Shown here: in pieces, positions 11,299 through 57,727 of the stretch
Position numbering within the stretch: the first letter of the stretch is position 1
Layout of the letters: every line of letters starts with the position of its first letter
The notes under the pieces: model-generated
Seen by the model: only the letters and a program-made list of their open reading frames with translations
What the model was told of the DNA's origin: nothing
The model's database searches: none
Position numbers and translations under genes: made by a program
Source: Candidatus Woesearchaeota archaeon
GTDB taxonomy: Archaea > Nanobdellota > Nanobdellia > Woesearchaeales > GW2011-AR9
Direction of reading: 5' to 3'
NCBI GenBank assembly: GCA_018696595.1
Contig: JABHQW010000003.1
Location: 192,001 to 256,000, forward strand
Length of the DNA: 64,000 bases

Positions 11299-12003
11299 AT
11301 GGCAAATAAAAAGCTAGTAGATTATATTAAAAAAGAGGAAGCAAGAGGTTATTCTATTCAACAATTAAGAAAAACTTTACTTGAAAGCAAATATAAAAAG
11401 GAAGAAGTTGAAGAAGCATTTAAATTTTTAAATAAAGATGAAGAACAAAAAAGCTTTCCTTTTTTAGCTTTTACAACATTATTGTTAGGATTTGGAGTAG
11501 TTTCTTTATTGTTAACATTTCTTTTTATTTTAATGATTTCTCTCTTAAGTGTCCATATAACAATTGGTTATTTTCTAATCATTTTATTTGGATTAATTAC
11601 TGGATACTATTTTTATCATGTTACTAATTCATTAAGAATTAAAGATAAGTTAAAAGCGATTATCGGAATAGTTTCTCCTATTTTCTCTTTAGTTCCTATT
11701 ATATTGTTATTTAGATCAATCAGGTTATTACAAGAAGAGCTGAGTTCTTTTGCCGCACAAGGAAAAGACTTAATGTTGGGAGGCGGAGTGCATCAAATTT
11801 TTAGTCAAAGTATTCCCCACCCGTACATTTCAGCAGCAATTTTTTATATTTGTTGTAATGTATTTATAATTACAAAAATCGTTAAAGATAAGAAACAAAA
11901 ACATTTAATGTGGTATCTTTTAGCACCCACTTTACTTTTTCTAATTTGGTTAATTACAGAAGTTGTCACAAAAACAATTATGGCAAACACATTAGGATTA
12001 TAA
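11299..12003 (+). CDS. Multi-pass membrane protein with a small N-terminal helical domain
   Basis: N-terminal LVDYIKKEEARGYSIQQLRKTLLESKY followed by about five TM helices. Confidence 0.7.
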   Translation: MANKKLVDYIKKEEARGYSIQQLRKTLLESKYKKEEVEEAFKFLNKDEEQKSFPFLAFTTLLLGFGVVSLLLTFLFILMISLLSVHITIGYFLIILFGLITGYYFYHVTNSLRIKDKLKAIIGIVSPIFSLVPIILLFRSIRLLQEELSSFAAQGKDLMLGGGVHQIFSQSIPHPYISAAIFYICCNVFIITKIVKDKKQKHLMWYLLAPTLLFLIWLITEVVTKTIMANTLGL

Positions 12004-12015
12004 CTTTCCTTTAAC
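11998..12015. repeat. Direct repeat, left copy (18 bp, 1 mismatch) flanking the PHP gene
   Basis: ttataactttcctttaac versus ttataacttacctttaac at 12757-12774. Confidence 0.8.
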
Positions 12016-12051
12016 ATAAGTTTTAAATATTATACACTTTCTGAGAATTTT

Positions 12052-12762
12052 ATGATATTAATTAATGATCTAGCAAAAGAAGATCATCATATGCATACCT
12101 GTACTTTCTCTGATGGAGACAATACTGCTGAAGAGATGATTAGAGTAGCTGGAGAAATTGGTTTAGAAAGGATTGCAATTACAGACCATAGTAAAATGAT
12201 TATAGATTCTTACTGGACAAATTTAAAAAGGGATCTTAGTCCAAAACTCAATAGAGACAAATTTAAAGAAAGATGGCAAGGCCAACAAGATAACGGAGTT
12301 AATGTTATTATTGGATTAGAAGCAGACTTAGTTAATGAAAATGGAGATGTTTGTGATTATAATTGGGATCCGTGTTTTAAAGAAGATTGGTTAATCTTAT
12401 CTGCCCATTTATATGGCTATGATGGTGATGGATCAAAAGTCATGCAAGGATATCTTAAAGCAATACAAAGATTTGGTGAAAGAATTAAAGTGATTGGCCA
12501 CCCTTATTGTTCAAGAGATTTTTCTCCCTATACTGACATGAAAGAATTAGCAAAAGCTGCTAATGACTATGGTATTGCTGGAGAGATAAATGGAAAATGT
12601 TTTTCTAATCCAGAAAGACTTCTTGATTTTAAACAATTGGAGTTAATGTTAGAACACTTCGATAGAATTGTAATTAATAGTGATGCCCATAACACAAGAG
12701 AATTGGAGAATGGAAGACTAAAACCATTTCAGTATCTTAAAGAGAAGGGATTAGTTTTATAA
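12052..12762 (+). CDS. PHP domain phosphoesterase
   Basis: HMHTCTFSDG, AITDH, GLEAD, GHP and NSDAH motifs; TTTAAATA 30 nt upstream. Confidence 0.9.
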   Translation: MILINDLAKEDHHMHTCTFSDGDNTAEEMIRVAGEIGLERIAITDHSKMIIDSYWTNLKRDLSPKLNRDKFKERWQGQQDNGVNVIIGLEADLVNENGDVCDYNWDPCFKEDWLILSAHLYGYDGDGSKVMQGYLKAIQRFGERIKVIGHPYCSRDFSPYTDMKELAKAANDYGIAGEINGKCFSNPERLLDFKQLELMLEHFDRIVINSDAHNTRELENGRLKPFQYLKEKGLVL

Positions 12763-12774
12763 CTTACCTTTAAC
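12757..12774. repeat. Direct repeat, right copy; the 3' end of the ZPR1 gene
   Basis: Encodes VKGKL-stop of ZPR1 on the minus strand; the left copy encodes the same peptide with one synonymous change. Confidence 0.8.
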
Positions 12775-13269
12775 GGCTTTATCACTTATTATTGCGCTAT
12801 GGCCAGTAGGATCTTCAATGATAAGTTTTAATTTCTCTCTGCCAACAAGAACTTTGCCCAACTTCTTAACTTGGTTTTTAGCTTTTTTTCTTAAAGAAGC
12901 ATCGTCTTCGCCTTCAACAGAAGCTTCAATGATTTTTTTTACTCTCTCAATTAAACCTTCGACATTAGTTATATATCCGCTAGAAGCAGGACCTGGTTCC
13001 ATAGTAATAACATGTGGGATTTTTACAGTTGCGTCCCCGGACTTAACAACTTTAACATTTAAATCATCATCTGAATTGATTTCAAAAGTATATTTGCAAG
13101 GTTCTTTCTTTTCTGCAGGCTCAATGTCTGACTTTCTATAACCACAATCAGAACATTCCACTGAAAGAATAAATATCCTTCCGAAGTGCGGTATTTCTGC
13201 TTCTTCTTCTCTAAGAGTAGCTTTATTTCCACCACAAATTGAACAATGTTGATTTTTTAACTCAGCCAT
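12757..13269 (-). CDS. ZPR1 zinc finger domain protein
   Basis: CSICG...IPHFG...CSDCGY...PG....GYITNVEG...LIIEDPTGHS. Confidence 0.92.
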   Translation of the reverse strand: MAELKNQHCSICGGNKATLREEEAEIPHFGRIFILSVECSDCGYRKSDIEPAEKKEPCKYTFEINSDDDLNVKVVKSGDATVKIPHVITMEPGPASSGYITNVEGLIERVKKIIEASVEGEDDASLRKKAKNQVKKLGKVLVGREKLKLIIEDPTGHSAIISDKAVKGKL

Positions 13270-13386
13270 GTTAATTAGAAAGAGAGATAGGTTTAAAAAG
13301 ATTTCGCCGCGGAGGAATATTAATCTAAAAAAATTGTTTTTTCCATCACAATATTCTTTATATATCCCCCCATATTACAAAGAGCA

Positions 13387-15198
13387 ATGTCAAAGATTAA
13401 CTTATTAAGTGAAGATTTAATCAACAAGATAGCTGCTGGAGAAGTGATTGAAAGGCCAGCTTCTGTTGTTAAAGAACTAGTTGAGAACTCATTAGATGCT
13501 GGCGCGGATATAATTACAGTTGAGATTAAGGATTCTGGAAAGAAACTAATTAAGATTTCTGATAACGGATCTGGAATGAGTGAAGAAGATGCAAAAAAAT
13601 GCATTTTAAGACATGCAACAAGTAAAATAAGTAAAGCAGATGATTTGTTTTCTATTCAGACTCTAGGGTTTCGTGGAGAAGCTTTGGCAAGTATTGCCGC
13701 AGTTTCAAGGTTGTCAATTATAACAAAACAAAAAGATTTAGTTGAAGGATTTAACCTTGTTGTCGAAGGTGGCAAAGAAATCAGTTCAGGGATTATTGGC
13801 ACAAATACAGGAACAACGATCGAAGTGCATGATTTATTCTTCAATGTTCCAGCAAGAAAAAAGTTTCTCAAAACTGATGCTGTAGAATTAAGACATATTG
13901 TTGATACTGTTTTAAAATATGCTTTAATCAATCCTACCGTAAGTTTCAAGTTAGTTCATGAAAAGCATGAATTAGTTAGTTCCCCTGCAGTTAAGGATTT
14001 ACAAGGAAAGATTGCTTCAATTTATGGAATAAATCTAGCAAAAGAACTTTTAGAAGTTAGTTCTGATCAAGAGGCCGTTAAAGTAACAGGATTCATTTGT
14101 AAACCTTATCAGGCAAGGAACGACAAAAACCAACAACAAATTTTTGTTAATAATCGTTGGATTAGAAATGAAACAATCAATAAAGCAGTTTATGAAGCGT
14201 ATCATTCACTTTTATTTGTTGGTAAACATCCAGTTTTTATTTTAAACATTGAAATTAATCCGGAAGAGATTGATGTTAATGTTCACCCAGCAAAAACTGA
14301 GATTAAAATTGAACAGAAAGAACAAGTTTTTTCTGCCGTAATGGAAGCAGTTAGAAAAACTTTGGAAAACCATGACTTAATTCCAGAATTAGATATTGAT
14401 CATGAAGAGCAATTAACTTTTGGAATTGATAAAAAAGAAGTTGAAGTTAAAAAAGAAAAAGCCAAATATTTGTTTGAACCAAGTAAACAAACAATATTAA
14501 AAGATAAAGAAGAAAGTCCCATAATTAGTGTAGATAACTTTGAAGAAGGCTCTTATACAACTCCTGAAGAAGAGGTTTTTGTTTCTGAACAAAAAGAAAA
14601 GAGAGTGTTAGAAAAGAGTTTAAGATTACCAGCAATGAAAATTCTAGGGCAAATACATAAAACATTTTTTATTGCCGAAACTGAAGGTGGTGCTTTATTT
14701 ATTGATCAACATGTTGTTCAAGAAAGAGTTCTTTATGAAAAGTTCATGAAACAATTAATGAACAAAGAAGTTGCTGTGCAAGAATTGTTGCAAGGGGAAG
14801 TTATTGAGTTCTCTGCTGCAGAAAAAGTTTATGTTAACGAAAGTTTGGTAAAAATGAAAGAGTTGGGATTTACGTTAGAAGAGTTTGGAGGAAATAGTTT
14901 TGTTTTAAAAACCGTACCATCATTATTTGGCAGATTGCAAGCAAAAGATTTATTATTCTCTGTTTTAGATAAATTAAAAGAAGGTAAAAACAAGTTAGAA
15001 GAAATTCAAGAAGAAATTATTACTCGAATGGCTTGCCGTGCTTCTGTAAAAGCAGGAGATACAATGACCATTAGAGAAATTGAGAAATTGTTATCTGAAC
15101 TGGCTGAATGTCAGTTGCCTTACACTTGTCCTCATGGCCGTGCTGTGTTGATTAAAGTTCCTGTTAGTGAGTTGGAGAAAAAATTTAAAAGAAAATGA
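13387..15198 (+). CDS. mutL: DNA mismatch repair endonuclease MutL
   Basis: KIAAGEVIERPASVVKELVENSLDA, TLGFRGEAL, DVNVHPAK, DQHVVQERVLYE and CPHGR motifs. Confidence 0.97.
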   Translation: MSKINLLSEDLINKIAAGEVIERPASVVKELVENSLDAGADIITVEIKDSGKKLIKISDNGSGMSEEDAKKCILRHATSKISKADDLFSIQTLGFRGEALASIAAVSRLSIITKQKDLVEGFNLVVEGGKEISSGIIGTNTGTTIEVHDLFFNVPARKKFLKTDAVELRHIVDTVLKYALINPTVSFKLVHEKHELVSSPAVKDLQGKIASIYGINLAKELLEVSSDQEAVKVTGFICKPYQARNDKNQQQIFVNNRWIRNETINKAVYEAYHSLLFVGKHPVFILNIEINPEEIDVNVHPAKTEIKIEQKEQVFSAVMEAVRKTLENHDLIPELDIDHEEQLTFGIDKKEVEVKKEKAKYLFEPSKQTILKDKEESPIISVDNFEEGSYTTPEEEVFVSEQKEKRVLEKSLRLPAMKILGQIHKTFFIAETEGGALFIDQHVVQERVLYEKFMKQLMNKEVAVQELLQGEVIEFSAAEKVYVNESLVKMKELGFTLEEFGGNSFVLKTVPSLFGRLQAKDLLFSVLDKLKEGKNKLEEIQEEIITRMACRASVKAGDTMTIREIEKLLSELAECQLPYTCPHGRAVLIKVPVSELEKKFKRK

Positions 15199-15506
15199 AA
15201 TGTTCACAATGCGGTGTTTGTTGTAAATTATTTGTAATAAACCTTAATGAAGAAGAGTATCGTTCTGGTAAATTTAAAACTGTCTTTGAAAAGTTTGGTA
15301 ATTTTGATTGGAGAGAAGCAGAATTAATTGGCGCCCATTTACTTGCTCAGAAGGAAGATGGCCAAACTTGTATATATCTTCAAGAAGGAAAATGTTCTAT
15401 CCATGAAGTTCGTCCGCAAGTATGTAGAGATTTCTTTTGTGATTCTAAAGAAGAATGGCACCAAGAGATGATTGAAAGAATAAAAAATTATAAAAAAGAG
15501 AATTAA
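15195..15506 (+). CDS. YkgJ-like CxxCxxCC zinc/iron-cluster protein
   Basis: CSQCGVCC...CIYL..GKCSIHEVRPQVCRDF. Confidence 0.9.
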   Translation: MKCSQCGVCCKLFVINLNEEEYRSGKFKTVFEKFGNFDWREAELIGAHLLAQKEDGQTCIYLQEGKCSIHEVRPQVCRDFFCDSKEEWHQEMIERIKNYKKEN

Positions 15507-16645
15507 CCTCTTCGTTCTACTTTCTGCATCCAATCTTTAGTGTCTTCTACTTCTCCGGTTTGAATTCCTGTTAGTAATGCATACATCTCCGTACTTACTG
15601 ATCCCACTTGACCATCTCCTACAACCATTTCTCTGACTCTAGTTCTTTTTCGTTCGCCAAGATCCATAATAAAGCTACCAACAGGAGCAACAGTTGCTGC
15701 TGTTCCTAATCCACCAGTTTCGGTTATTTCTCCAAGAGCGATGTCAGTAACAAAATCTAAAGCTGAAACTTGTTCTTGTAATACAGGATGTCCTAAACGA
15801 TCACCCAACTCTAAAAATGAACGGCTAGTAATAGATTCTAAAATAGTGTCAGTAAACTGGGGAATAATGATTTCCCCATCCCTAGTCACCATATAAACAT
15901 TCATTGCTCCAGTTTCTTCAATAAATCTATCTGTTGCATCCATATAAAGCACTTGTTTAGCTCCAAATTCTTTTGCTCTTTCAGCTGCTTTTAAGGAAGC
16001 GGCATAATTACCCCCAGTCTTAGCAGTCCCTACACTTTTAGGAGCAACACGTTTATGTTTATCAGTTAACATTAATTTAATAGGACTAAAGCCATCAGGG
16101 AAATAAGCACCACTAGGAGAAAGAAATGTACAGAAAACATAATCTGAACTTGGTTTTACTCCCAAAAAACCACCAGTACCAAACATAAATGGTCTGATAT
16201 AAATAGAAGCATTATCTTGTTGTGGCATCCATAATCGTTCTACATCAAGCAAAGCATTAATTCCTTCTAACTGAACTTCTTCCGGAATTTCTGCCATACA
16301 CATCTCTCTTGCTGAATGATTGAGACGATTAACGTTCTCATCTAACCTAAATGTATAAAGTTCCCCATCAGGATGTTGAAAAGCTTTTACTCCTTCAAAG
16401 ATAGTTTGAGAATAATGTAATGTTGCCATGTTAGGCATTACATTTACTCTATTTACATGATTAGCGGTATCAACCACTTCAAATGGACCGTAAGGAACAA
16501 TTCTTGGCGAATGCCATTCTCCATTAGAATGATCCATTAAAAACATATGGTCGGAAACTAATCCTCCAAACCCTAATGGTTCTTTTTGTTCAAATTGTTG
16601 TTGAAGTCGCTCAGATTTAGGTAGAAGATCGTATTGGATATCCAT
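15503..16645 (-). CDS. ilvE: Branched-chain amino acid aminotransferase (PLP class IV)
   Basis: LHYSQTIFEG-x-KA, YIRPFMFG, AKTGGNYA, ETGAMN and ILESIT motifs. Confidence 0.93.
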   Translation of the reverse strand: MDIQYDLLPKSERLQQQFEQKEPLGFGGLVSDHMFLMDHSNGEWHSPRIVPYGPFEVVDTANHVNRVNVMPNMATLHYSQTIFEGVKAFQHPDGELYTFRLDENVNRLNHSAREMCMAEIPEEVQLEGINALLDVERLWMPQQDNASIYIRPFMFGTGGFLGVKPSSDYVFCTFLSPSGAYFPDGFSPIKLMLTDKHKRVAPKSVGTAKTGGNYAASLKAAERAKEFGAKQVLYMDATDRFIEETGAMNVYMVTRDGEIIIPQFTDTILESITSRSFLELGDRLGHPVLQEQVSALDFVTDIALGEITETGGLGTAATVAPVGSFIMDLGERKRTRVREMVVGDGQVGSVSTEMYALLTGIQTGEVEDTKDWMQKVERRG

Positions 16646-16795
16646 TTTGGTTGGAAGTAATGGAACAATCTATTTAAACATTATTAATCAATATTCAATA
16701 GTGTTTATGAGGAAATAAAGAATTGTTTATTGATTATCAAAATTTCTGTCATTTTATGAGAAAAGTTTATATATACTTACTCCTTAGTGGTAAAT

Positions 16796-18544: not shown

Positions 18545-18570
18545 TTCTCATCTCATTTAGAAACTATATT

Positions 18571-27685: not shown

Positions 27686-28438
27686 ATGACATTATATTTA
27701 ATTGGGATTGGACTAAGTACAGAAAAAGACATCACAGTTAAAGGATTAGAAATTGTTAAGAAATGTGATAAAGTTTACTTAGAAAGTTATACTTCACTAT
27801 TACAATGTTCTGTTAAGGATTTGGAACAGTTTTATGATCAAGAAATTATTATTGCAAACCGAGAAATGACTGAACAAGGAGATGAAAAAATTATTTCTGA
27901 AGCTAAAAAAAAAGATGTTGCTTTCTTAATTATTGGCGACGTTTTTTCTGCTACAACCCACGTTCAGCTGTTTAAATTGGCTAAAGAAAATAATGTTAAA
28001 GTTGAAGTAATTAATAATGCTTCAGTATTAAATTCTGTAGGGATTACTGGATTAGAATTATACAAATTTGGTAAAATCACTTCTATCCCTTTTATTGAAG
28101 ACCATCCTCAGTTAGAAACACCTTATAACGTTTTGAAGGAGAATGGCGATATGCACACTTTGTTTTTACTTGATTTAAAGCCCGCTGAGAATAAGTTTAT
28201 GACCATTAATGTTGCACTAGAGATTCTGGAAAAAATCGAATCACGGAAGAAAGAAGGGTTAATTAACGATGATTTGTTAGTTGTTGGTTGCGCTCGTCTT
28301 GGATGTGATGGTTTTATTGTTAAAGCAGGTAAGTTATCTGAAATTCGGGCGTTCGATTTTGGTGCACCGTTACATTGTTTAATCATTCCAGGCAAGATGC
28401 ATTTTATTGAAAAAGAAATGTTAGAGTTATGGAAGTAA
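27686..28438 (+). CDS. dph5: Diphthine synthase
   Basis: LYLIGIGL...DITVKG, VYLESYTS, GDVFSATTH, LELYKFG, HTLFLLD and PLHCLIIPG-x-MHF-x-E motifs. Confidence 0.96.
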   Translation: MTLYLIGIGLSTEKDITVKGLEIVKKCDKVYLESYTSLLQCSVKDLEQFYDQEIIIANREMTEQGDEKIISEAKKKDVAFLIIGDVFSATTHVQLFKLAKENNVKVEVINNASVLNSVGITGLELYKFGKITSIPFIEDHPQLETPYNVLKENGDMHTLFLLDLKPAENKFMTINVALEILEKIESRKKEGLINDDLLVVGCARLGCDGFIVKAGKLSEIRAFDFGAPLHCLIIPGKMHFIEKEMLELWK

Positions 28439-28454
28439 TAAGTAAAGAAAAAAA

Positions 28455-28784
28455 TTAATAAAAAGCACAAGGCCACATAGATGCTTCAGCTTTAATCTGA
28501 TCTTCAATTTGTAAATTTTCATCACCATTTTCTTTTTCTTTTTTAAGCGCATCTTTTATTTTTTCTCTACGATTCACAAAATAATTCATTATCTCGGGTG
28601 TATAACCCATTTTTTTTAACGGGATAATATAAGGTTTATCTCCACGAGCAGCTCTAGATGCATCTAATTCTTCTTGGTTTCTAAAATTTCCTTCTCCAAC
28701 AATATAAATAGTTGATTGCTTTGCAACTTCTTCTAAAACCGGTTTATCTCCATTAACTTTAACATTTTTATCATGATTTGTCAT
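28455..28784 (-). CDS. Orphan hypothetical protein
   Basis: 109-aa ORF with upstream BRE/TATA-like motif TTCTAGAAAACATTTATAA. Confidence 0.6.
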   Translation of the reverse strand: MTNHDKNVKVNGDKPVLEEVAKQSTIYIVGEGNFRNQEELDASRAARGDKPYIIPLKKMGYTPEIMNYFVNRREKIKDALKKEKENGDENLQIEDQIKAEASMWPCAFY

Positions 28785-28924
28785 TTTAAATTATCTCCAA
28801 ACACCAACAAACTACCTAGAACCTCTAATATTAGTACAATTCTGAGAGCTATTTATAAATGTTTTCTAGAAAATATATGTTCTAGTAAATAAAGTAATTA
28901 AAAGTAAGAAATTATTGATTAATT

Positions 28925-29269
28925 GTGCAAGAAAAGACTATCTTAAAAACATCTTTAATCGTTGTTTTAGTAGGTTTAGCATTTCTATTTTTCTATGCAG
29001 AAGAGATTGATTTGAAAGCGATAAATAATGTTGATGAAAGTAATTCAGGAGAATCAATAAAGTTAACGGGCACTATTAGTAAATTAACTACAAGTGATAA
29101 AGTTGCTTTTATTGAATTGGAAGGCCAGCAAACTATTAAAACGGATGTAATTCTATTTAGTAGCGAGAATGTTTATTTGCAAGAGGGAGATTACGTAGAA
29201 ATCTACGGCACTGTTGAAGAATATAATTCTGAAAAAGAGATTATCGCCAGTAAGATAGTTAAGAAATAA
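28925..29269 (+). CDS. Membrane-anchored OB-fold protein
   Basis: N-terminal TM helix; I-K-L-x-G-x-I...GDYVEIYGTVEEYN...EI-x-A OB-fold pattern. Confidence 0.8.
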   Translation: MQEKTILKTSLIVVLVGLAFLFFYAEEIDLKAINNVDESNSGESIKLTGTISKLTTSDKVAFIELEGQQTIKTDVILFSSENVYLQEGDYVEIYGTVEEYNSEKEIIASKIVKK

Positions 29270-29278
29270 AAGAAAAAA

Positions 29279-30268
29279 TTATTGGGCTTTAGATTTCAGC
29301 TCACCAAAAGCCTTATTAATTTCTTGATCTGTCCAACCAGTATTATGTTTAAGAATTTCTCTTACACCTTCGTCAGAAGTACCCATTCTTTTTTCCTCAT
29401 GAATCCAAGTCTTCAATTCATCAAAATTGTAAGCTTTCCTATGCGGATGAACAAAATGTACAACCACTAAGATTAAAACTATGATAAAAGATAGTACTGA
29501 AGGAATCCCAATGATATAAGTTTTATATTGGTTCCAATAATTCCAATAAGATGATGTTGGTTGTTGTATTTGTGGTTCTACTGCTGGAGGAGGTAAATCT
29601 GGTTCGATTTTTTGTGGTTGCGGACCAGGGACAGTAATTTGATTACAATTCTTTTGCAATAATGGTTTCTTGAATGTAGTGCCACAAGAATGGTCGTCTA
29701 CACAAGTTCTTTTCTGTACTCCGTTACTACAATCGTTCCATAACGAACAGAACCAGGATTCTTTACATTCTTCACAAGATTGAACTTCTTTTTTAGGTTT
29801 ATCACAACCGTTTTTATCTGTACAAGTTCTACTTTGTTCTAAAGTTGCATTACACAATGACCAAGTGCCACATTCCCACTTTGAAGAACAATAGTTTATA
29901 TTGCCACCGCCTGGAGATGGTGTTGTTGTAATGGGAGGCACTGTATAACAACCAGGAGAATCTACACAGAAAAATTGTTCAGTATTACCGTTAGCACAAT
30001 TCACTTTAATTTTATATTTTCCTGCGTTTAGATTAGAATTAGTATTATAAGAAGTCACCCAACTATTTTCTCCACTTTTAATATCTACTAACTCATCTGC
30101 AGAATCTAAAAAAACTTTAAGAACAGAATTCCCTGTACATTCAGCAACTGTTAATTGTACATTTTCAGGATGAGAATAATCCGTTTTATCAGTTGTTACA
30201 GTTACTGCTAAAGCTAAACTCATGCAAAGAATAAAAGTTAAAAAGTAGATTATCTTCTTCATTTTCAT
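29279..30268 (-). CDS. Secreted, C-terminally anchored protein with TSP1-like WxCxxWSxC repeats
   Basis: Signal peptide; WECGTWSLC...QSRTCTD and WFCSLWNDC...QKRTCVD; C-terminal TM and short helical tail. Confidence 0.8.
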   Translation of the reverse strand: MKMKKIIYFLTFILCMSLALAVTVTTDKTDYSHPENVQLTVAECTGNSVLKVFLDSADELVDIKSGENSWVTSYNTNSNLNAGKYKIKVNCANGNTEQFFCVDSPGCYTVPPITTTPSPGGGNINYCSSKWECGTWSLCNATLEQSRTCTDKNGCDKPKKEVQSCEECKESWFCSLWNDCSNGVQKRTCVDDHSCGTTFKKPLLQKNCNQITVPGPQPQKIEPDLPPPAVEPQIQQPTSSYWNYWNQYKTYIIGIPSVLSFIIVLILVVVHFVHPHRKAYNFDELKTWIHEEKRMGTSDEGVREILKHNTGWTDQEINKAFGELKSKAQ

Positions 30269-43417: not shown

Positions 43418-43435
43418 TTTGATTAAAATAAAAAG

Positions 43436-43605
43436 CGCCACGGGCCGGACATCCAAGCAAAAAGAGAATCTTAATGCAATTTGAACCGGCGATCCCATAA
43501 GGGACTAGATATTCACGAGATTAGGTTTTCATATTTTGTCATAGACAATATCAAACCCACGCTAAAATAGCAATCTAGCGCAATACCAGACTATGCGACC
43601 GTGGC
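43436..43605 (-). tRNA. tRNA-Ser(GCU) with two BHB introns (37/38 and 59/60)
   Basis: Acceptor GCCACGG/CCGUGGC, anticodon stem CUAGA/UCUAG, long variable arm, T-stem GCCGG/CCGGC; introns at 43511-43567 (57 nt) and 43450-43479 (30 nt). Confidence 0.92.
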
Positions 43606-43678
43606 GCGAACGTAGTGAGCGACGCGGGAAGCATGCTCAGAAACAATTTATTGTTTCTCGCGTATGCGACTGTGGCAC
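43591..43678. repeat. Direct repeat of the tRNA-Ser 5' end (71-bp period)
   Basis: tatgcgaccgtggc (43592-43605) versus tatgcgactgtggc (43663-43676). Confidence 0.8.
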
Positions 43679-43788: not shown

Positions 43789-44298
43789 ATGCTTAAACAA
43801 ACAGACATCCAAAAAACATTAAGTGCATTCAAACCAGAAAACTTTGTGTTTGTTATTTCTATAGATAAAAACAATAAACCAAACGGCATGGTAGCTGCTT
43901 GGAAAACAAGAATCTCTGGAACTCCGCCATTGTATGCCCTTGCGTTAGGACAATCAAGTAACACTTACAAACTGATTAAGAAAAGTAAAGAGTTTGTTAT
44001 TGCAGTTCCAAATAAAAGTATGGAAAAAGCAATAAAGATTTTTGGTCATCAACATGGGGATGAGATCGACAAATTCAAAGAATCTAAACTAACAACAATT
44101 CCTGCTAAGAAAATTAAAGTTCCATTAATCAAAGAAGCAACTATTTGTTATGAATGTAAGCTAGTTAATACTATAAAAACAGGCAGTTGTAATTTAGTAG
44201 TTGGAGAAGTAGTTGTAGCTCATCATAACAAAAAGAAAAAGGTTATTTTAGTAATGGGAAAAGATAAGGAAGGGAAAAGAATATTCAAAGAATTCTAG
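43789..44298 (+). CDS. Flavin reductase-like FMN-binding protein
   Basis: PNGMVAAW...SGTPP..A.A...S.NTYKLI.KSKEFVIAVP...PLIKEA..CYEC motifs. Confidence 0.9.
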   Translation: MLKQTDIQKTLSAFKPENFVFVISIDKNNKPNGMVAAWKTRISGTPPLYALALGQSSNTYKLIKKSKEFVIAVPNKSMEKAIKIFGHQHGDEIDKFKESKLTTIPAKKIKVPLIKEATICYECKLVNTIKTGSCNLVVGEVVVAHHNKKKKVILVMGKDKEGKRIFKEF

Positions 44299-44334
44299 AA
44301 ACATTTATAAAAAAATAGCACTAAAAATATTATA

Positions 44335-44619
44335 ATGGAAACCGGACAATATCAACAACCGATTGAAGAAGAACGTTACTTAACTGCATTAAATAGTAGA
44401 AGATTAATCCCTAAAGATTTATCTGGCGCAGTATTGCCTAATGGTGGTGGCAATGGTGGTGGGGATGATGACGATGACAAAAGAGAACCCCATTTAGAAT
44501 TGTTAATTAGAACAAGTAGCCCTTCAAAAAAAGGAGAATATGGCAATAAGGTTTTTGACGTAAAGAAAATAATGAAAGAATATTTTCCCACTCAACAAGA
44601 ACCCAAATACATTTCTTAA
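44335..44619 (+). CDS. Orphan small protein with a G/D-rich linker
   Basis: 94 aa; TTTATAA about 30 nt upstream; NGGGNGGGDDDDD tract; flanked by a 15-bp direct repeat at 44293-44307 and 44641-44655. Confidence 0.6.
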   Translation: METGQYQQPIEEERYLTALNSRRLIPKDLSGAVLPNGGGNGGGDDDDDKREPHLELLIRTSSPSKKGEYGNKVFDVKKIMKEYFPTQQEPKYIS

Positions 44620-44688
44620 TTAATTACTTTTTTCAACGTCTTCTAGAAACATTTAAGTATAGTTGAAGTCTTCTTAAAGTTTATATAC

Positions 44689-49866: not shown

Positions 49867-49868
49867 TT

Positions 49869-50057: not shown

Positions 50058-50058
50058 T

Positions 50059-50715: not shown

Positions 50716-50841
50716 TTAATAGCCCCGACAGTCTTTGCAATAATATCGATTAGCGTTTTCAACAACAATTCGTTGACCGCAACCTTTGCAACACCGCTGG
50801 ATTTTAAATTTTTTGACTTCCTGAAATACGTGTTGTTTCAG
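50716..50841 (-). CDS. 41-aa Zn-ribbon microprotein with probable CTG start
   Basis: AAGGTG SD 7 nt before CTG; (M)KQHVFQEVKKFKIQRCCKGCGQRIVVENANRYYCKDCRGY with CxxC...CxxC. Confidence 0.55.
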   Translation of the reverse strand: MKQHVFQEVKKFKIQRCCKGCGQRIVVENANRYYCKDCRGY

Positions 50842-50885
50842 TTTGTATCACCTTCTTTTTTTTACACAATTAAAAAAAGACAGGT

Positions 50886-50912
50886 CAAAAAAAGAACTGT
50901 TGTTCTTTTTTG
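50886..50912. terminator. Perfect hairpin with A/T tails
   Basis: AAAAAAGAAC-TGTT-GTTCTTTTTT. Confidence 0.45.
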
Positions 50913-51117
50913 CTTACCTTCTTTTTTTTTAAAAGAACGATTTAGAAAAACTTAATTTCCATCCACCTTCTTTTTTGCGAACTCGTTTAGAGCTCAGCCT
51001 CTCCAACGTTTCTTTCGTCAGAAAAACACACCTAATAGTACTCGAGAGTAAACTAGTATATAAATGTTTTCACGTTTCACCCTCTATTCTTACTAAAAAA
51101 CAAAGATAAAATAAATC

Positions 51118-51750
51118 CTAAAACAATAAATTTCTAAAATAAATTCCTAAGAATCCTAATGCCAACATAATAATCCAAATTGTTTTACTCCAATAAAATA
51201 TCTTCTTCCCATCAAACAACCAAAAAGGAATTAAATTAAACAATCCCAAAAAGAGATTCACATAATAACCAACGAACCAAACATTTATGAAACTAGGAAA
51301 AACAAAGTTTAAAGAGAAGAACACAATAGCTAAAACGTAATTAGTTAATGGGCCCGCTAAACTGATGATTCCATTTTCTTTTTGAGTGATTTGACCAGAA
51401 ATGATTACTGCACCAGGAGCTGCAAAAATTCTTCCAATAAAAACAGCTAAGCCGATAGCAAAATATAACATTTTATCCTCTGCTCTAAACTCAGCAACAC
51501 AACCATAATGTTGAGCAAGAAATTTATGAGCAAGTTCGTGAAACAAAAACCCCACACCCACAGTAAATAAAGAGATTAAAAAAGAGATTAAAAACTGATA
51601 AGAAAAAGCATTAGAAATATTGCCTTCAACTAAACTAGTTCCAGATAAGAAAAAAGCAAAAGCTAACGAAATTGCCAACCATGCTTTGGCAATGTCAACA
51701 AGTTCTATTCGAGAAGTTTTAATTCTTCCAATTTTAATTGTCTTGTACAT
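51118..51750 (-). CDS. Site-2 protease / M50 family Zn metalloprotease
   Basis: HELAHK, ISLAGPLTN and FNLIP...FDG-x-K motifs; multiple TM helices. Confidence 0.9.
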   Translation of the reverse strand: MYKTIKIGRIKTSRIELVDIAKAWLAISLAFAFFLSGTSLVEGNISNAFSYQFLISFLISLFTVGVGFLFHELAHKFLAQHYGCVAEFRAEDKMLYFAIGLAVFIGRIFAAPGAVIISGQITQKENGIISLAGPLTNYVLAIVFFSLNFVFPSFINVWFVGYYVNLFLGLFNLIPFWLFDGKKIFYWSKTIWIIMLALGFLGIYFRNLLF

Positions 51751-51982
51751 CTTCGTTTTTCTCTTTCATCACAATCATCTTATCAAGTTCTTCTTCAGTG
51801 TGAACAATATCTTCCATCTTTTCTTTAAGAAAGTTTTTTAATTTTTGTGCTTCTTCCTCAACTTTCACTAACATATCTAAATCAGAAAAGTTTTCTTCAG
51901 CACATTCGGGACAATAATAATCAGGAGTATCTTTTATTTTGTAAATCGCTTCCTCACCACAGATCATACATTTCTTAACCAT
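51734..51982 (-). CDS. Small Zn-finger protein
   Basis: CMICG...YYCPECA followed by a coiled coil. Confidence 0.75.
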   Translation of the reverse strand: MVKKCMICGEEAIYKIKDTPDYYCPECAEENFSDLDMLVKVEEEAQKLKNFLKEKMEDIVHTEEELDKMIVMKEKNEDVQDN

Positions 51983-52087
51983 CTGTTTACTACGAAAGAG
52001 AAAAGTCTTTAAAAAGATTTCTGATGAAAATAAGAACGACTAAAAAGCATAAGCTTTTTATGTATGTTCTGAGATTCAACAATTACA

Positions 52088-52600
52088 ATGAATGAAAACG
52101 ATTTATTAGATGTTGTAAATGAAACAGATGAAGTAATTGGACAAGATTATAAGAACAATAAATTCACTAAAGGGTTTATCTCTAGAAATGCAGTGGTTTT
52201 TATTAAAGATAAAGAGGGCAGATATATTATTGTTAAAAGAAGCCCACTAAAAAGAACTGACCCCAATAAGTTAGATCTTTCTGTTTGTGGAAATGTTAAT
52301 GCTGGAGAAGATTATAAACAAGCAGCAATAAGGGAAATGAAAGAAGAAATTGGGATTGAGTGTGATGTTAAATTTCTAAAGAAAATCACTAATGAGATCC
52401 CCCACAAAGACACAATTCTAAAATTCTTCACAGGAATCTTTCTAGGAGAACATCATGGAGAAATTGTTACAAACGAAGAAGTTAAAGAACATCAACGTTG
52501 GACTTTAGAAGAGTTAAAACAAGAGATGGAACAGAACCCAGAACAATTCACCTTCGGTTTTAGAAAAGACTTTGAAGAAGTTAAAGATTTACTTCAATAA
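52088..52600 (+). CDS. NUDIX hydrolase (IDI-like branch)
   Basis: LDVVNETDEVIG, CGNVNAGEDYKQAAIREMKEEIGI and PEQFT motifs. Confidence 0.9.
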   Translation: MNENDLLDVVNETDEVIGQDYKNNKFTKGFISRNAVVFIKDKEGRYIIVKRSPLKRTDPNKLDLSVCGNVNAGEDYKQAAIREMKEEIGIECDVKFLKKITNEIPHKDTILKFFTGIFLGEHHGEIVTNEEVKEHQRWTLEELKQEMEQNPEQFTFGFRKDFEEVKDLLQ

Positions 52601-52611
52601 CGTTTCTTTCA
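52588..52611. repeat. 24-bp exact direct repeat, left copy
   Basis: tttacttcaataacgtttctttca, identical to 53040-53063. Confidence 0.92.
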
Positions 52612-52649
52612 CAGAAAAGAATATAAAATCCAATAGTATTCTATCTCTC

Positions 52650-53036
52650 ATGGCAAAAGATGATGACACATTAGAGAATCTTGTCGGACCAACAATTGTT
52701 TTTAAAGATGGCGTCGAGTTTACTGGAGCAGGAATGAATTGTTTATCATTAAAATACAATTACTCTCACGGACAAAAGAACCCACATTATGAAGATGTTG
52801 CCAGTGTTTTTGTTAATGGAGAACTAAAATGGCAAAACCATAATTATTCTCAAGGAACACCAAAAACAACAGATTCTGTAGAGTTAGTTTTAGCCCCAAG
52901 AATAGAATATGTTATGAAAATAAGTAAAACATTACGATTTAAAAGACCAAAAGATAAAACAATAAAAACATTCTTGAAAATAGAAGCCAGTCAAGTAGAA
53001 AATGTTTACCAGAATGATGAACAACTTTGGCCATAA
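52650..53036 (+). CDS. Orphan 128-aa protein inside a direct-repeat-flanked cassette
   Basis: ATG 52650 lies about 30 nt after AATATAAAA inside the cassette; the longer ORF-track frame overlaps the NUDIX gene. Confidence 0.7.
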   Translation: MAKDDDTLENLVGPTIVFKDGVEFTGAGMNCLSLKYNYSHGQKNPHYEDVASVFVNGELKWQNHNYSQGTPKTTDSVELVLAPRIEYVMKISKTLRFKRPKDKTIKTFLKIEASQVENVYQNDEQLWP

Positions 53037-53039
53037 AAG

Positions 53040-53063
53040 TTTACTTCAATAACGTTTCTTTCA
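53040..53063. repeat. 24-bp exact direct repeat, right copy; the 3' end of the PIN-like gene
   Basis: Encodes KETLLK-stop on the minus strand. Confidence 0.92.
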
Positions 53064-53730
53064 TTTCTTTGATTTCTTGTTCAGTTACAGCAGAACCATT
53101 ATACTTTGCTGCCCACAATACAGAATCTAGTAAAGTGGTTTTACCACCACGCTGTTTAGGCATATAATGATTCAACATTCCAAGTTTGTAAGCCACAGCA
53201 ACTAATTCAATAGAACGAACAATTTTTATATTTTTCAACTGATTACTAAAATCGTTCATTTTATCTTTGTTCACTTGAACATCTTTCTTGAAACGGATTT
53301 CTAATAACTTTTCCATTTCTTTATTATTCTCAATTAGTAAACGTAAAGTTCTTTCATCCATGACAACAGCAGAAGCATTGGTTTGTAAAGCACAAGTTAC
53401 TGCTTCCATTTCTCCAGTTTGAATTATGTCCATGTTTTTGTTTTTTATTTTGAAAGAACTGTTAGCCAAATTTTGTAACTGTTCTACTCTACTTTTAGGA
53501 ACTTTATCATAAACTTCTAATGTCCCATCTCTAATTAGTTTCATAACTTGTAATGCTTCAAATTCAAACCGTTTAATTCCTAATGGTCTTTCAACTAATT
53601 CTGTTTTAACACCGGGAGTAATGTAGAATTTTCCACCAAACTTTTCTTTCAGTTTAGGAAGAATCCAAATCAACCGAGACATAACTAGTGTGATGATCGG
53701 TCCTGCGTCGAAGAATAATGCTTTTTCCAT
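53041..53730 (-). CDS. PIN-domain-like protein
   Basis: LFFDAGPIITL...GEMEAV..AL......VVMDERTLR. Confidence 0.75.
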   Translation of the reverse strand: MEKALFFDAGPIITLVMSRLIWILPKLKEKFGGKFYITPGVKTELVERPLGIKRFEFEALQVMKLIRDGTLEVYDKVPKSRVEQLQNLANSSFKIKNKNMDIIQTGEMEAVTCALQTNASAVVMDERTLRLLIENNKEMEKLLEIRFKKDVQVNKDKMNDFSNQLKNIKIVRSIELVAVAYKLGMLNHYMPKQRGGKTTLLDSVLWAAKYNGSAVTEQEIKEMKETLLK

Positions 53731-53731
53731 T

Positions 53732-54286
53732 TTAAACCCCAAATAGTTTCAGTGCTAATTCTAACCTTTTTTTTGCTGAGACTGAAACGTAATGTGAATC
53801 CATCACTTTAGTTCTGCCAGCATATTGTTGTAAGTCCCAATTAGATAAACCCATCAATCCCGCTGCTTGTCCTAATGAAAGACCTTTCTGCAATAAAACC
53901 GCTCCTTTTTTAATTCTGGCTGCATCCATTACATCTTGTAAATGTGTTTTTACTGAAGCGTTTGCACTTCTAACAATCTTAAAAAGAGATTTCACACTTT
54001 TATTATATCTAGCAAAATTTCCTTGTTGTAAATGATTTCTAGCAAATTCCAGTTCTGCAATTAAATCTTTATAATTTTCTTCTTTCATTTGCCGAACAAC
54101 TTTGTATATTGAATAAATAAGAACAGTTACTGAAATCAAATCAAGATTTTTGTATAAAGCCACATCTTCTATTGAATGGTCGCTTAAATCTTTCAATTGT
54201 TCTACATCTTGCAGTTCTCTTTGTTTAAGAATTTCAATAGTCTTAGTCAAATCATTAAGAATCTCTTTCTTTACCTCTCTTCTCAT
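53732..54286 (-). CDS. Helical protein with C-terminal UPF0175-like HTH
   Basis: GLSLGQAAGLMGLSNWDL; ATG 54286 lies about 30 nt after TTTAATA. Confidence 0.65.
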   Translation of the reverse strand: MRREVKKEILNDLTKTIEILKQRELQDVEQLKDLSDHSIEDVALYKNLDLISVTVLIYSIYKVVRQMKEENYKDLIAELEFARNHLQQGNFARYNKSVKSLFKIVRSANASVKTHLQDVMDAARIKKGAVLLQKGLSLGQAAGLMGLSNWDLQQYAGRTKVMDSHYVSVSAKKRLELALKLFGV

Positions 54287-54491
54287 ACTTGTTAGCATAT
54301 TCTTGGGTTTTATTAAAGTTTTGGAAAGAAGCCTATACCACAATTTTAAGAGCAGCGCCAATGGAGGCACATTTTTTGGCTAAAAGACAAAAAATCTCGG
54401 GTGCCGTGCCCTGCTCTTAAAATGATTTTATAACCCAAGTAAACAATTGACAGACCAACAAATTTATAACCAATAAAATATTACTTTCTTT

Positions 54492-54986
54492 ATGGCTTAT
54501 GCAGTAACCCATATCATTCTAACAATCGTTGTCTTAGATTTATTTAGACATTATGTATTTGGAAAAAGAAGATTTCCGAGATATATGTTAGTGATTGGTG
54601 GGATTGCTGGACTTCTTCCAGACATTGATATTCCTCTTAGTTGGATTTATAATTTATTTACAGGACTCTCAGTTAATTTTCATGGTATGTTTACCCATTC
54701 ATTAATATTCCCAATAATATTTGCTTTGATAGGAGTTATTTTCCATTTCAAAAAAGGGAATCATAAATGGGCAAAGATATTTTACATTATTGCTTTTGGA
54801 TTGTTTTTCCATTCAATATTAGATTGTGCTTTTGGTGGTTACAAAACTTTCTTCTGGCCGTTCTACTTCATAAACTTCTGTCCACAATGGGGAATTGCTA
54901 GTTATATGCAAAGTGTAGATGCAATTATATTAGTTGTTTGGTTGCTACATGAAGAAATACATAATAAGATCAAGGATTATATTTGA
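54492..54986 (+). CDS. Membrane-bound metal-dependent hydrolase (YdjM-like)
   Basis: VTHI, GLLPDIDI, HG-x-FTHSL and HSILD motifs. Confidence 0.88.
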   Translation: MAYAVTHIILTIVVLDLFRHYVFGKRRFPRYMLVIGGIAGLLPDIDIPLSWIYNLFTGLSVNFHGMFTHSLIFPIIFALIGVIFHFKKGNHKWAKIFYIIAFGLFFHSILDCAFGGYKTFFWPFYFINFCPQWGIASYMQSVDAIILVVWLLHEEIHNKIKDYI

Positions 54987-54988
54987 AA

Positions 54989-56038
54989 ATGAAAAAAGAG
55001 ACAATTCCCGGAACTATCAGGATTCAAGTGAAAGGATTAATTCCTTATCAGAAAACTAAAACCTCTTGGAAGAAATGTTCTCAAAAGTTTCCCAAAGTAA
55101 AAGAGATTGTTAAATTGTTTAAAGCACACAAAAACTTCAACATCCTAGTTGATAAAGTTAATCCAAGATTCCTTAAAGGACAATTGCTAAAAGGAAAAAT
55201 TCAAGGTGCAAGAATTAACGTTCTTCCAGATGGAACAAAAATAGATAAAGCTTATTCTTTATTCGCAGACCATTTAACAGTTCATGATCAAAAGTCAAAT
55301 GAACATTGGGATGTTTTATATCAGAATCCTGGTGGAACGTGGGCTTATTGTTATTCTTTAGAAAAAAAAGCGAAAAACACTATTAAAAAATATAATAAAG
55401 TTCATCAATTTGATAAAGTTTATTCTAACTTAAACAAAAACGTTTCTTCAGCACTAAGAAATAAGAAAGATAACCTTGCCTTACCTATGTATACTTTATT
55501 GAAAACAAGAATGAGAATTGGTAATGAAATTTATTATAAGTTACACAATCATAAAGGATTAACAACATTAAAGAAAAAAAATATTAAAATAAAAGGTAAC
55601 AAAATTGAATTTCAATATGTGGGAAAAGATGGAGTCCCACAAGATGTTGTTAAAGAATTTCCTGTTTCTTACATTAAACGAATGAAAGAACATCTTAAAA
55701 AGATTAAAAGAGAAGATTTTGTTTTTGTTTCTAATTCCGGACACCCATTACCAGAGAAGGAATTCAAATTAGCTTTCAAGAGGTACTGCGGTAAAGAATT
55801 CTATCCCCATATAGTAAGATCTCATTATGCTACAAGTAAAGTTAAAAATTTCATTAAAGGTAAAAGAAAACTCAACAAAAAGGAAGTAAATAAGTTATAT
55901 TTAGAAATTGCTAGTTCTTTAGGGCATAAAAAGTTCTCAAAAAAAGATAATGTTTGGAAAGAAAGTTTCTCTGTTACTGTGGGACATTATATTGAGCCAA
56001 AGTTGGTTGAGAAGGTTAAAAAAATGGTTAGTAAATAA
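54989..56038 (+). CDS. DNA topoisomerase IB (short poxvirus/bacterial-size form)
   Basis: RIGNE-x-Y, GLTTL-x-K, FQYVGKDG, HIVR, LGH and C-terminal HYIEP (candidate catalytic Tyr). Confidence 0.8.
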   Translation: MKKETIPGTIRIQVKGLIPYQKTKTSWKKCSQKFPKVKEIVKLFKAHKNFNILVDKVNPRFLKGQLLKGKIQGARINVLPDGTKIDKAYSLFADHLTVHDQKSNEHWDVLYQNPGGTWAYCYSLEKKAKNTIKKYNKVHQFDKVYSNLNKNVSSALRNKKDNLALPMYTLLKTRMRIGNEIYYKLHNHKGLTTLKKKNIKIKGNKIEFQYVGKDGVPQDVVKEFPVSYIKRMKEHLKKIKREDFVFVSNSGHPLPEKEFKLAFKRYCGKEFYPHIVRSHYATSKVKNFIKGKRKLNKKEVNKLYLEIASSLGHKKFSKKDNVWKESFSVTVGHYIEPKLVEKVKKMVSK

Positions 56039-56103
56039 ATTCTAACTACAATTAAGTGACAACACCCAAAACATTTATAAACTGAACACGAAGAAATAGA
56101 GTT

Positions 56104-57588
56104 ATAACAGATTATTTTACAGAATATGACCAAAAATGGCACCAGAGAATATCTTCTCTTCATGTTAATGCATTACGTACTGCAGAATCAACTGCTAAAG
56201 CATCAAAGAAATTTAAAAAAATTATGGTTTCTGCAGAAAGAAAGAGACAACAAGCATTAATAAATTATGATCAAACAACAGCTCTTGATTCCTTAGAATC
56301 TAAATTAAGAGCAATAGATATACAAGAAGATTTAGATACAATGGATTTGTCAAGAGAAATAACTTTAGAAGTTGTGCAAATGGAGTTAAGAACACATTTA
56401 CGACAATCATTGACAGAGTTAACTGATATTGGTTGGAAAATGTACCAGGATGATTTAAAACAATTTAATGATGAAGGACAATTAATATTTTATTTCAAGT
56501 TAGCAAATGAATTATTTATGATCAGTGAATTACATGAAATGGAATTTTCTTATCGTACTGATGAACCATTATTATCAGATTGTAATGTATTAAAAGAAAG
56601 ATTATTTCCAAGAGGACCACCTAAAGGAAGTATTGATAGCTTTTTTGAGAGCAGACAAGATGATGTAAAAACTTTGGTCCAAGAATTACAAAGAAATAAT
56701 TATATCACTAAGAAAGCAGCAAGAAAATTAACTCAATTATTAAACCCACTTAGTGCTGAATTAGAAAGAAGAGAAGTGGCTAATATTACTTCAGCGGTAA
56801 GCGAACTTTTTGATAGTATTTATAGTACAATAGAAACACATACAAAACCAGTACCAAAAAAAAAGACAGTTATTGAAGAAAAAGTTGCAACAGGACCAAC
56901 TCCAGAACAAATTGCTGAAAGTCAAGATGTTTTAATTAATTTCTTTGATTTAAGAGAAGAAATTGCTGACAATTATGCTAACCAATTATCTCAATCAGAT
57001 ATAATTCATATGTATAGTCAACTAGCCAACACAATTGGTGACGAACCAGCAATAGCAGTTATTAGAGATAATCCAGAAATTTTAACATATGTACAAACTA
57101 ATCAATGGAGTAAATATGTCAGAGCCTTAAGTGTTATCTGTAACGGAACCGGGCAAGAAACAATTGAAAGTTATCCCACAAATGAATATTCCTCTTTAGA
57201 AAGAGCTTTAGAATTAAAACAAAAAGTTAATTCGTTTGCTAATAGTAAAGATACAGCAGAAATAACTGAAGAATTAACAAAACCAGAATTTGAATTATAC
57301 AGATATACCTTTCTTCATACAGGAAATGAACATGTAAATAGAAGAAGAGAAAGTTTAATTAAAAAAGGAAAAGTAACAGTTACAGACCGAGATCATTGGA
57401 ATGGAGGAAGTTCTGGTGCAAGAGGAAATAACATCATCATGAAATTAGATTATGAAATCGGGATTTTGTTTTCAGACTTGGGCTTACCAGAACCTGATTG
57501 TAATCCTAATTTTGGTCAAAGAACATTATCTATTTCTCCACAAGACCAAGCTAACCTAGCAGAAGTTGCTGCTTTATATTGTAAATAA
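56104..57588 (+). CDS. Orphan helical protein (ATG 56224; possible ATA start at 56104)
   Basis: Frame open 40 codons upstream of the ATG; ATA lies exactly 30 nt after TTTATAA; bounded by GTAAATAAAT at 56031-56040 and 57581-57590. Confidence 0.65.
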   Translation: MTDYFTEYDQKWHQRISSLHVNALRTAESTAKASKKFKKIMVSAERKRQQALINYDQTTALDSLESKLRAIDIQEDLDTMDLSREITLEVVQMELRTHLRQSLTELTDIGWKMYQDDLKQFNDEGQLIFYFKLANELFMISELHEMEFSYRTDEPLLSDCNVLKERLFPRGPPKGSIDSFFESRQDDVKTLVQELQRNNYITKKAARKLTQLLNPLSAELERREVANITSAVSELFDSIYSTIETHTKPVPKKKTVIEEKVATGPTPEQIAESQDVLINFFDLREEIADNYANQLSQSDIIHMYSQLANTIGDEPAIAVIRDNPEILTYVQTNQWSKYVRALSVICNGTGQETIESYPTNEYSSLERALELKQKVNSFANSKDTAEITEELTKPEFELYRYTFLHTGNEHVNRRRESLIKKGKVTVTDRDHWNGGSSGARGNNIIMKLDYEIGILFSDLGLPEPDCNPNFGQRTLSISPQDQANLAEVAALYCK

Positions 57589-57589
57589 A

Positions 57590-57727
57590 TGGGGCCGCGA
57601 AGACTTTCAAATTCTCTCTTGCGAAAGAATTTTTTGAATTCCAGGATTAATTATTAATCTCTCCGATTCCACGACTTCTGGTTTTGATCCCCAGCCGTGG
57701 GTGCTAACCAAGTTACACTACGGCCCC
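57590..57727 (-). tRNA. tRNA-Pro(GGG) with three introns (37/38, 53/54, 59/60)
   Basis: Acceptor GGGGCCG/CGGCCCC; introns at 57676-57688 (13 nt), 57639-57660 (22 nt) and 57604-57632 (29 nt), each with a 4-bp central helix and two 3-nt bulges; mature length 74 nt. Confidence 0.9.

Follow-up and report, generated by a model that had tools for sequence, protein, structure and literature searches.

The stretch analysed here, which we call the window, comprises 64,000 nucleotides (positions 192001 to 256000 of contig 6) of the Candidatus Woesearchaeota genome G000, which is 1.19 Mb in size, is distributed over 8 contigs, and has a G+C content of 32%. This genome carries an archaeal rRNA operon with a tRNA-Ala in the spacer, and its closest public relatives are labelled Woesearchaeota or Nanoarchaeota. 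Our subject is a set of short direct repeats that bracket small inserted genes in this genome. An earlier note, made from the window sequence alone, had described four such repeat pairs, and all four are present (Table 1). We compared them with two genomes of the same genus (G001 and G002, with a DNA identity to G000 of about 71 to 81% at most conserved loci), with genomes of other genera (G012, of which 816 kb were read, and G016), and with contigs from the Joint Genome Institute (JGI), of which L302 and L303 represent a fourth species and L304 is a further contig.

At all four sites the stop codon of the upstream plus-strand gene lies inside the left copy of the repeat, and the interior holds one plus-strand open reading frame (ORF). 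The earlier note had read this interior as a TATA box followed by one leaderless gene, which agrees with sites 1 to 3, where a TATA-like box lies about 20 to 30 bp before the ATG, but not with site 4, whose gene does not look leaderless because its ATG (56224) is located about 140 nt downstream of the TATA-like box. The inserts start within a few bases of the TATA-like box and end at the stop codon or at most 3 bp from it, and are minimal transcription units. The genes on either side are intact, as had also been claimed: they are full length in comparison with their relatives, with ZPR1 aligning over residues 1 to 170 and the 233-amino-acid (aa) gene of site 2 over residues 5 to 233.

The two copies of site 2 match at 24 of 24 positions, and at 28 of 30 when extended, while the single mismatch between the copies of site 1 is synonymous in the ZPR1 frame. 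At both sites the upstream gene has its stop codon in the left copy, and the right copy forms the authentic 3' terminus of a conserved gene on the minus strand, from which it follows that the genes which met there before the insertion were convergent and shared their stop region. The bracketed genes of both sites are missing in relatives, where the flanking core genes abut. Thus, the same-genus genomes and most other relatives have the 233-aa gene of site 2 followed by an 82-aa gene (51734 to 51982 in the window), with a gap of about 50 to 55 bp in G001 and G002, and lack both the NUDIX gene and the 128-aa orphan, the latter being without a match in Pfam, PHROG, or PADLOC; its protein was seen on 36 contigs. 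Since the NUDIX gene is absent at this locus from G001, G002, and other relatives, we regard it as an earlier insertion, though one that has no significant repeat around it. Site 1 is anchored by a homologue of the origin-associated protein OapC (10897 to 11277). In their ancestral arrangement the genes for OapC and ZPR1 are convergent with 19 to 27 bp between them; in several relatives they are convergent and 19 to 50 bp apart, and because other relatives hold unrelated inserts of 0.15 to 3.6 kb at this junction, we consider it a hot spot. The PHP-domain phosphoesterase of site 1 is patchily distributed across the order, its best match being 44% identical. Searches left of both the NUDIX gene and the gene 11299 to 12003 for a third, degenerate copy of the junction detected nothing significant. 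Rather than being core and syntenic, the cassette genes are accessory and missing from relatives whose flanking genes adjoin. An 11-bp word, TAAGTTTTAAA, stands ahead of both inserted genes of site 1 (11284 to 11294 and 12016 to 12026), so that the site reads A, gene, B, A, gene, B; its recurrence is only suggestive, as the word is promoter-like and a word of at least 11 bp is common to about 1.7% of random intergenic pairs.

The genes at sites 3 and 4 are likewise replaced in congeners. Where the window has its genes of site 3, G001 carries two unrelated genes on the minus strand, and both G001 and G002 have a 293-aa minus-strand gene where G000 has the 454-aa gene of site 4. The slot of site 4, which ends at a tRNA-like gene, is variable, though its 10-mer is no evidence. 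The tRNA-like gene (57593 to 57727, minus strand), identified by manual reading, has a 5' GGGGCCG that pairs with a 3' CGGCCCCA, and also a D-arm; the GGG in its anticodon position points to a proline tRNA. It contains two intron-like interruptions and is conserved in G001 and G002; both ARAGORN and Rfam miss it.

Table 1. Repeat copies, inserts, and adjoining inserted genes at the four sites (positions in the window)
Feature	Position	Strand	Description
Site 1, 234-aa gene	11299-12003	+	Family unassigned; also absent at the site 1 junction in relatives
Site 1, left 18-bp copy	11998-12015	+	17/18 match; contains stop of gene 11299-12003
Site 1, unique insert	12016-12756	+	TATA-like box near 12019-12033; PHP-domain phosphoesterase gene 12052-12762, stop inside right copy
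Site 1, right 18-bp copy	12757-12774	+	Last five codons and stop of conserved ZPR1 (12757-13269, minus strand)
Site 3, left 15-bp copy	44293-44307	+	15/15 match; contains stop of flavin-reductase gene 43789-44298
Site 3, insert	44335-44619	+	94-aa orphan gene between the 15-bp copies
Site 3, right 15-bp copy	44641-44655	+	
Site 2, NUDIX hydrolase gene	52088-52600	+	Absent at the site 2 locus in both same-genus genomes and other relatives
Site 2, left 24-bp copy	52588-52611	+	NUDIX gene stop and duplicate of last codons of minus-strand gene 53041-53742
Site 2, unique insert	52612-53039	+	TATA-like box near 52621; ORF 52650-53036, 128 aa
Site 2, right 24-bp copy	53040-53063	+	Authentic 3' end and stop of conserved minus-strand gene 53041-53742 (233 aa)
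Site 4, left 10-bp copy	56031-56040	+	10/10, chance-level match; contains stop of topoisomerase IB gene 54983-56038
Site 4, insert	56224-57588	+	454-aa orphan gene
Site 4, right 10-bp copy	57581-57590	+	Abuts 3' end of minus-strand tRNA-like gene (about 57593-57727)

A genome-wide scan against a null model, of the kind that the earlier note had proposed, found the pattern enriched. For each of 1213 genes of G000, called by a simple codon-usage ORF picker, the two bracketing intergenic regions were compared, each extended 25 bp into the flanking genes. An exact shared word of at least 15 bp was observed in 14 cases, with 0.56 expected from random intergenic pairs and 1 found in the inverted control; for words of at least 18 bp the corresponding figures were 8, 0.06, and 0, for 17 of 18 matching bases 20 were observed and 2.0 expected, and for words of at least 10 bp 72 were observed versus 50 expected. 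When the regions compared were two or three genes apart, a word of at least 15 bp occurred in 3 cases each. Among random intergenic pairs, 0.047% share an exact word of at least 15 bp, 0.17% a window with 17 of 18 matching bases, and 4.2% an exact word of at least 10 bp. The 24-, 18-, and 15-bp pairs of the window are each unlikely to have arisen by chance, whereas the 10-bp pair is at chance level.

Two of the 14 cases are tandem paralogues (contig 6, 184 to 188 kb) and two belong to a fixed-core cassette array on contig 2. With these excluded, about 10 cases are left in addition to the window case with 17 of 18 matches. The cases are spread over four contigs at unrelated junctions, and the repeat lengths are 14, 15, 15, 16, 18, 18, 19, 21, 22, 24, 28, and 33 bp. 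Tandem duplication of paralogues was rejected as their general source, since a BLASTP comparison with all called genes revealed adjacent paralogues only at the contig 6 locus just mentioned; in one further case a 31%-identical methyltransferase lies upstream. An assembly artefact was ruled out because the same structures are present in an independent metagenome-assembled genome and in JGI contigs. The array (contig 2, 1 to 13000; L071) is built on an invariant core, TAACATCGTTA, with six copies between 1180 and 6407 and one more on contig 3, inside a gene. This core is absent from the dispersed repeats, which rules out a link between the two.

What the repeats duplicate became apparent at five loci for which one-copy empty sites were found in sister species or on metagenome contigs. 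Because the empty sites of these loci, located elsewhere in the genome than the window sites, hold a single copy, the repeat is the duplicated target, and the presence or absence of each insert is precise. The 28-bp repeat on contig 3 (412600/414136) occurs in G000 as two identical copies around two genes, forming a 1.5-kb insert, and in G002 as one copy, while G001 is empty; the two G000 copies share derived bases that are not in the empty sites. The empty site of G001 (contig 42, about 14558 to 14600; L297) contains GTAGAAACTA twice, about 27 bp apart, a duplication that an imprecise excision or a tiny insertion may have left behind. An 18-bp repeat on contig 6 (23356/24807) has a PKD-domain gene between its two copies in G000 and is present once in G002, where the upstream gene has its stop codon within the TATA box of the gene that follows. 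For a 15-bp repeat on contig 3 (423545/424006), which encloses a MauE/DoxX gene, G001 is empty and both G000 and G002 are filled. At the locus of an ArsP permease, the single G002 copy of a 21-bp repeat consists of the last codons of the upstream gene and the promoter after it; in G000 the end of the upstream gene carries a degenerate copy, and two exact copies follow beyond it, in the order junction, gene, junction, ArsP, junction. In G016, which belongs to another genus, the ArsP gene is located elsewhere, without repeats. In every case what has been duplicated is a former meeting point of two genes: a stop codon that runs into the TATA box of the following gene, or the ends of convergent genes where these overlap.

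The same junction can be used by different cassettes, as is seen at the fifth locus, the 22-bp promoter of the leucyl-tRNA synthetase (LeuRS) gene. Two copies of this promoter are present in each of G000, G001, G002, and the fourth species (L302, L303), with unrelated genes between them, so that G000, G001, G002, and L302 provide four different fillings. The borders of the repeat are identical in G000, G001, and L302, and the G002 copies share about 20 more bases on the left. L304 has the order methyltransferase, promoter, LeuRS, with one promoter copy only. A regulon motif was ruled out as the source of this repeat, since the 22-mer is found only twice in G000. A further property of the repeats emerged at two loci whose cassette is common to G000 and G001 (54 bp of repeat in total): the copies are identical at 54 of 54 positions in G000 and show 2 differences in G001, while orthologous copies differ at 6 to 8 positions between the two genomes. 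Since independent evolution after a shared duplication predicts differences within a genome at least as numerous as those between species, the copies are kept alike, whether by gene conversion or by repeated excision and re-entry.

The LeuRS of G000 (contig 6, 139409 to 142285; L060:2410-5286) is itself unusual. It has 36 to 37% protein identity to its congeners, which are 86% identical to each other, yet the same 22-bp promoter, specific to the genus, precedes it, and its C-terminal 16 residues are exactly those of the native G001 enzyme. A foreign version seems to have replaced the original gene in place. Both LeuRS types have a scattered distribution within the order, and a donor search for the odd one returned a best match of 64% identity, with different promoters.

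As to the nature of the repeats and inserts, the statement that the repeats share no sequence is nearly right, with the qualification that several hold TAAC followed by a T-rich box, which we read as the local promoter consensus, made up of the transcription factor B recognition element (BRE) and the TATA box, and not as a common core. Similarly, the absence of a fixed attachment (att) site holds across sites but not within one, the LeuRS promoter being reused with the same borders by different cassettes in different species. The repeats are not palindromic and their borders are sharp, no similarity extending beyond them within the genome. No terminal inverted repeats or end pairing were detected in 13 cases, in which the first 45 bp were compared with the reverse complement of the last 45 bp (best p 0.026, most > 0.1). 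None of the inserts contains a recombinase, transposase, integrase, or Cas1 gene. The inner genes match the Pfam families NUDIX, methyltransferase, ArsP, PKD, MauE/DoxX, PHP, and trypsin-like, or none, so that the cargo is made up of ordinary accessory genes or orphans; no defence or phage families of note were found in it. Three cassette proteins had no viral or plasmid carriers in IMG/VR, and a metagenome scan for the 24-mer of site 2 gave no match.

According to our analysis, the repeats arose by duplication of a gene junction that was already there, as a small accessory gene unit recombined into it. Most likely, and in this we have moderate confidence, the unit entered through a Campbell-type crossover with a small circle: the incoming DNA, probably circular, would have recombined once with the chromosomal junction through a short sequence common to both. 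The features of such an event are found here: the repeat equals the shared segment, the empty site has one copy, the repeat length is variable, and no enzyme is encoded by the element. Because the signals of neighbouring genes overlap, with a stop codon in the BRE/TATA box or a stop region shared by convergent genes, a gene can enter without harm only if the junction is present on both sides. The incoming DNA, probably a small circle, would bear the same 15- to 33-bp junction sequence and would undergo one crossover with the chromosomal junction, as in Campbell-type insertion-duplication, carried out by the homologous recombination machinery of the host or by a relaxed recombinase acting in trans. 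The two resulting copies would stay competent for recombination, which would explain the presence or absence of inserts among congeners, the arrays, the different cassettes within the same pair, and the concerted change of the copies. We put forward more tentatively a wider possibility, namely, that the genus trades single-gene units by an integrase-independent cassette system (or one served by a relaxed recombinase in trans), for which any conserved junction would be a landing pad; a circle with one junction copy would integrate over 15 to 33 bp, excise, and enter the matching junction of a related cell. If real, such an exchange system would explain why there are hot spots and arrays, why different cassettes lie between identical repeats, and why the copies evolve in concert.

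Several observations weigh against the crossover. No exact repeat of at least 15 bp is present at the two window junctions in the loci of 50 relatives, and no circle, excision junction, or conspecific empty allele was found among the assembled sequences compared. At the PKD site, G001 carries another gene at the same point without duplication. The pattern is weaker in G012, with 4 cases versus 0.15 expected but 7 inverted ones; the process may be widespread at low frequency and more visible in G000. The argument from concerted evolution is built on two loci, and the model leaves unexplained how a cassette first acquires its copy of the junction. A length of 15 to 33 bp is short for homologous recombination; archaea can recombine over such short lengths. 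Finally, the identical borders of four cassettes at the LeuRS promoter could mean a site-specific enzyme, or else selection that keeps only the promoter core.

The former possibility leads to the strongest alternative, in which a site-specific tyrosine recombinase acting in trans integrates at gene ends integrase-less, att-flanked cassettes, similar to cis-mobilizable elements or to decayed islands. A size of 15 to 33 bp is that of an att core, and the reuse of the same borders by different cassettes at one site and the arrays with one junction repeated would be expected of it, as would the match between the direct repeats and the single copy at the empty sites of congeners. G000 encodes three tyrosine recombinases, all located outside cassettes and one of them 2.7 kb from a 25-bp repeat pair on contig 6, as well as the separate fixed-core array, and a 17-bp repeat pair of G012 takes in a tRNA 3' end. 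Against this, three enzymes would have to act on at least 10 unrelated repeat sequences, without a common core beyond the promoter consensus and without the array core TAACATCGTTA. No insert holds an integrase, and the inserts show no recombinase remnant and, as minimal transcription units, no decayed element backbone. We consider this explanation rather unlikely.

The observed duplications might also result from non-homologous insertion, through filled-in staggered breaks or replication template switching, followed by selection for those duplications that preserve overlapping signals. The variable repeat length and the sharp borders agree with such events, and in five cases the duplication was needed to keep the neighbours intact, owing to a stop codon over a TATA box or to overlapping convergent stops. 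Derived bases common to both copies of the 28-bp repeat are what an in-place duplication would leave, and the different G001 insert at the PKD point suggests untargeted events. Untargeted insertion does not predict, on the other hand, identical borders for four cassettes, arrays that reuse one junction, or the concerted evolution of the copies, and the duplication often exceeds the overlap to be preserved (at site 2, 24 bp versus 12 to 13 bp). Nor do we know of an enzyme that makes 15- to 33-bp staggered cuts without terminal inverted repeats. For these reasons we judge non-homologous insertion to be unlikely.

Chance matches, or the ordinary resemblance of promoters in adjacent intergenic regions, which an AT-rich genome with a shared promoter consensus might produce and which account for the 56031/57581 pair, since 10-bp matches are expected for 4% of genes, are very improbable as a general explanation and are refuted for repeats of at least 15 bp, given their 25-fold enrichment, which is confined to direct orientation and adjacent pairs, the 22-mer found only twice in the genome, and the single copies at the empty sites of congeners. 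Equally improbable is strand transfer by the topoisomerase IB encoded beside site 4, a candidate that the earlier note had raised speculatively: the enzyme is of the poxvirus/bacterial type and vaccinia topoisomerase IB can promote illegitimate recombination at CCCTT sites, but the gene is a core gene, conserved in relatives at 54 to 79% amino acid identity with or without cassettes, the poxvirus-type site YCCTT is present in only 2 of 7 repeats read by eye, and its proximity carries no weight because the neighbouring 10-bp pair is at chance level.

Some further features were observed around these loci. Just left of the 25-bp pair on contig 6 (92879/93366), the region 89664 to 92511 (L272, L062) encodes a 206-aa tyrosine recombinase, a HerA/FtsK-like ATPase, and a zinc-ribbon protein and may be an integrated plasmid- or virus-like element; the contigs of G001 and G002 end near the corresponding region. 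In the window, the cumulative guanine-cytosine skew peaks near 29 kb (about 28000 to 30000), and a replication origin or terminus may lie near OapC or the region of this peak. A G+C-rich intergenic stretch at about 43424 to 43670 includes 191 bases (43424 to 43614) whose identity to G001, at 95%, greatly exceeds that of the neighbouring genes; in three further relatives, parts reach 89 to 97% identity. An Rfam search of this stretch returned no match at E values up to 1, and it probably represents a structured RNA that is either undescribed or highly divergent.

DPANN archaea have tiny, dense genomes whose gene content turns over quickly. Junction-preserving insertion would provide a concrete route for gene gain and loss in such genomes without any element-encoded enzyme, the 15- to 33-bp repeats remaining recombinogenic, and would make recent acquisitions of uncultivated archaea recognizable by a simple sequence signature; it also raises the question of which host enzyme recombines such short sequences. 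Our literature search did not find this insertion mode described for Woesearchaeota or DPANN. The earlier note had called the route undescribed, which goes too far in so far as insertions are already known to duplicate a target or att sequence, while the integrase-less, single-gene form with many targets in a DPANN archaeon looks new.

Among known systems, the closest parallel in the papers searched is provided by the "additive" islands of streamlined marine bacteria, which contain cassettes marked by direct repeats of tRNA fragments (PMC7771536). As in the present case, a short direct repeat of the end of the target gene flanks the cassette, insertions recur at the same spot and form arrays, and the target stays intact (PMC7771536). 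The cassettes described here differ in that they use many unrelated protein-gene ends and promoters instead of tRNA genes, consist mostly of single-gene inserts (one with two genes) that have no element backbone and no integrase in or adjoining them, and have repeats of variable length whose copies evolve in concert. In lacking an integrase, they invite comparison with cis-mobilizable elements, which are integrase-less too. Integron cassettes are also single-gene units that are added one by one, and different cassettes occupy the same slot of related genomes; we rejected this identity since our inserts have no attC-like pairing of their ends, share no core, are dispersed rather than gathered at a single attI site beside intI, and are flanked by a copy of the local junction. 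Transposons and casposons likewise duplicate their target on both sides and leave one copy when the site is empty, but they were rejected because the inserts have neither terminal inverted repeats nor a transposase or Cas1, and their duplications, of 14 to 33 bp, have no fixed length. The "morons" of phages are promoter-plus-gene units placed between two intact genes and resemble our inserts as self-contained units; unlike these, they are not defined by flanking junction duplications, and the host here is a cellular chromosome. Campbell-type insertion-duplication, in which one crossover through a short stretch of homology brings in a circle, is known from the integration of plasmids and from mutagenesis in the laboratory. 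To our knowledge, it has not been described as a natural, recurrent route for single genes via 15- to 33-bp junctions, and what it predicts are features seen here, namely, a repeat equal to the shared segment, variable repeat length, reversibility, arrays, and homogenised copies.

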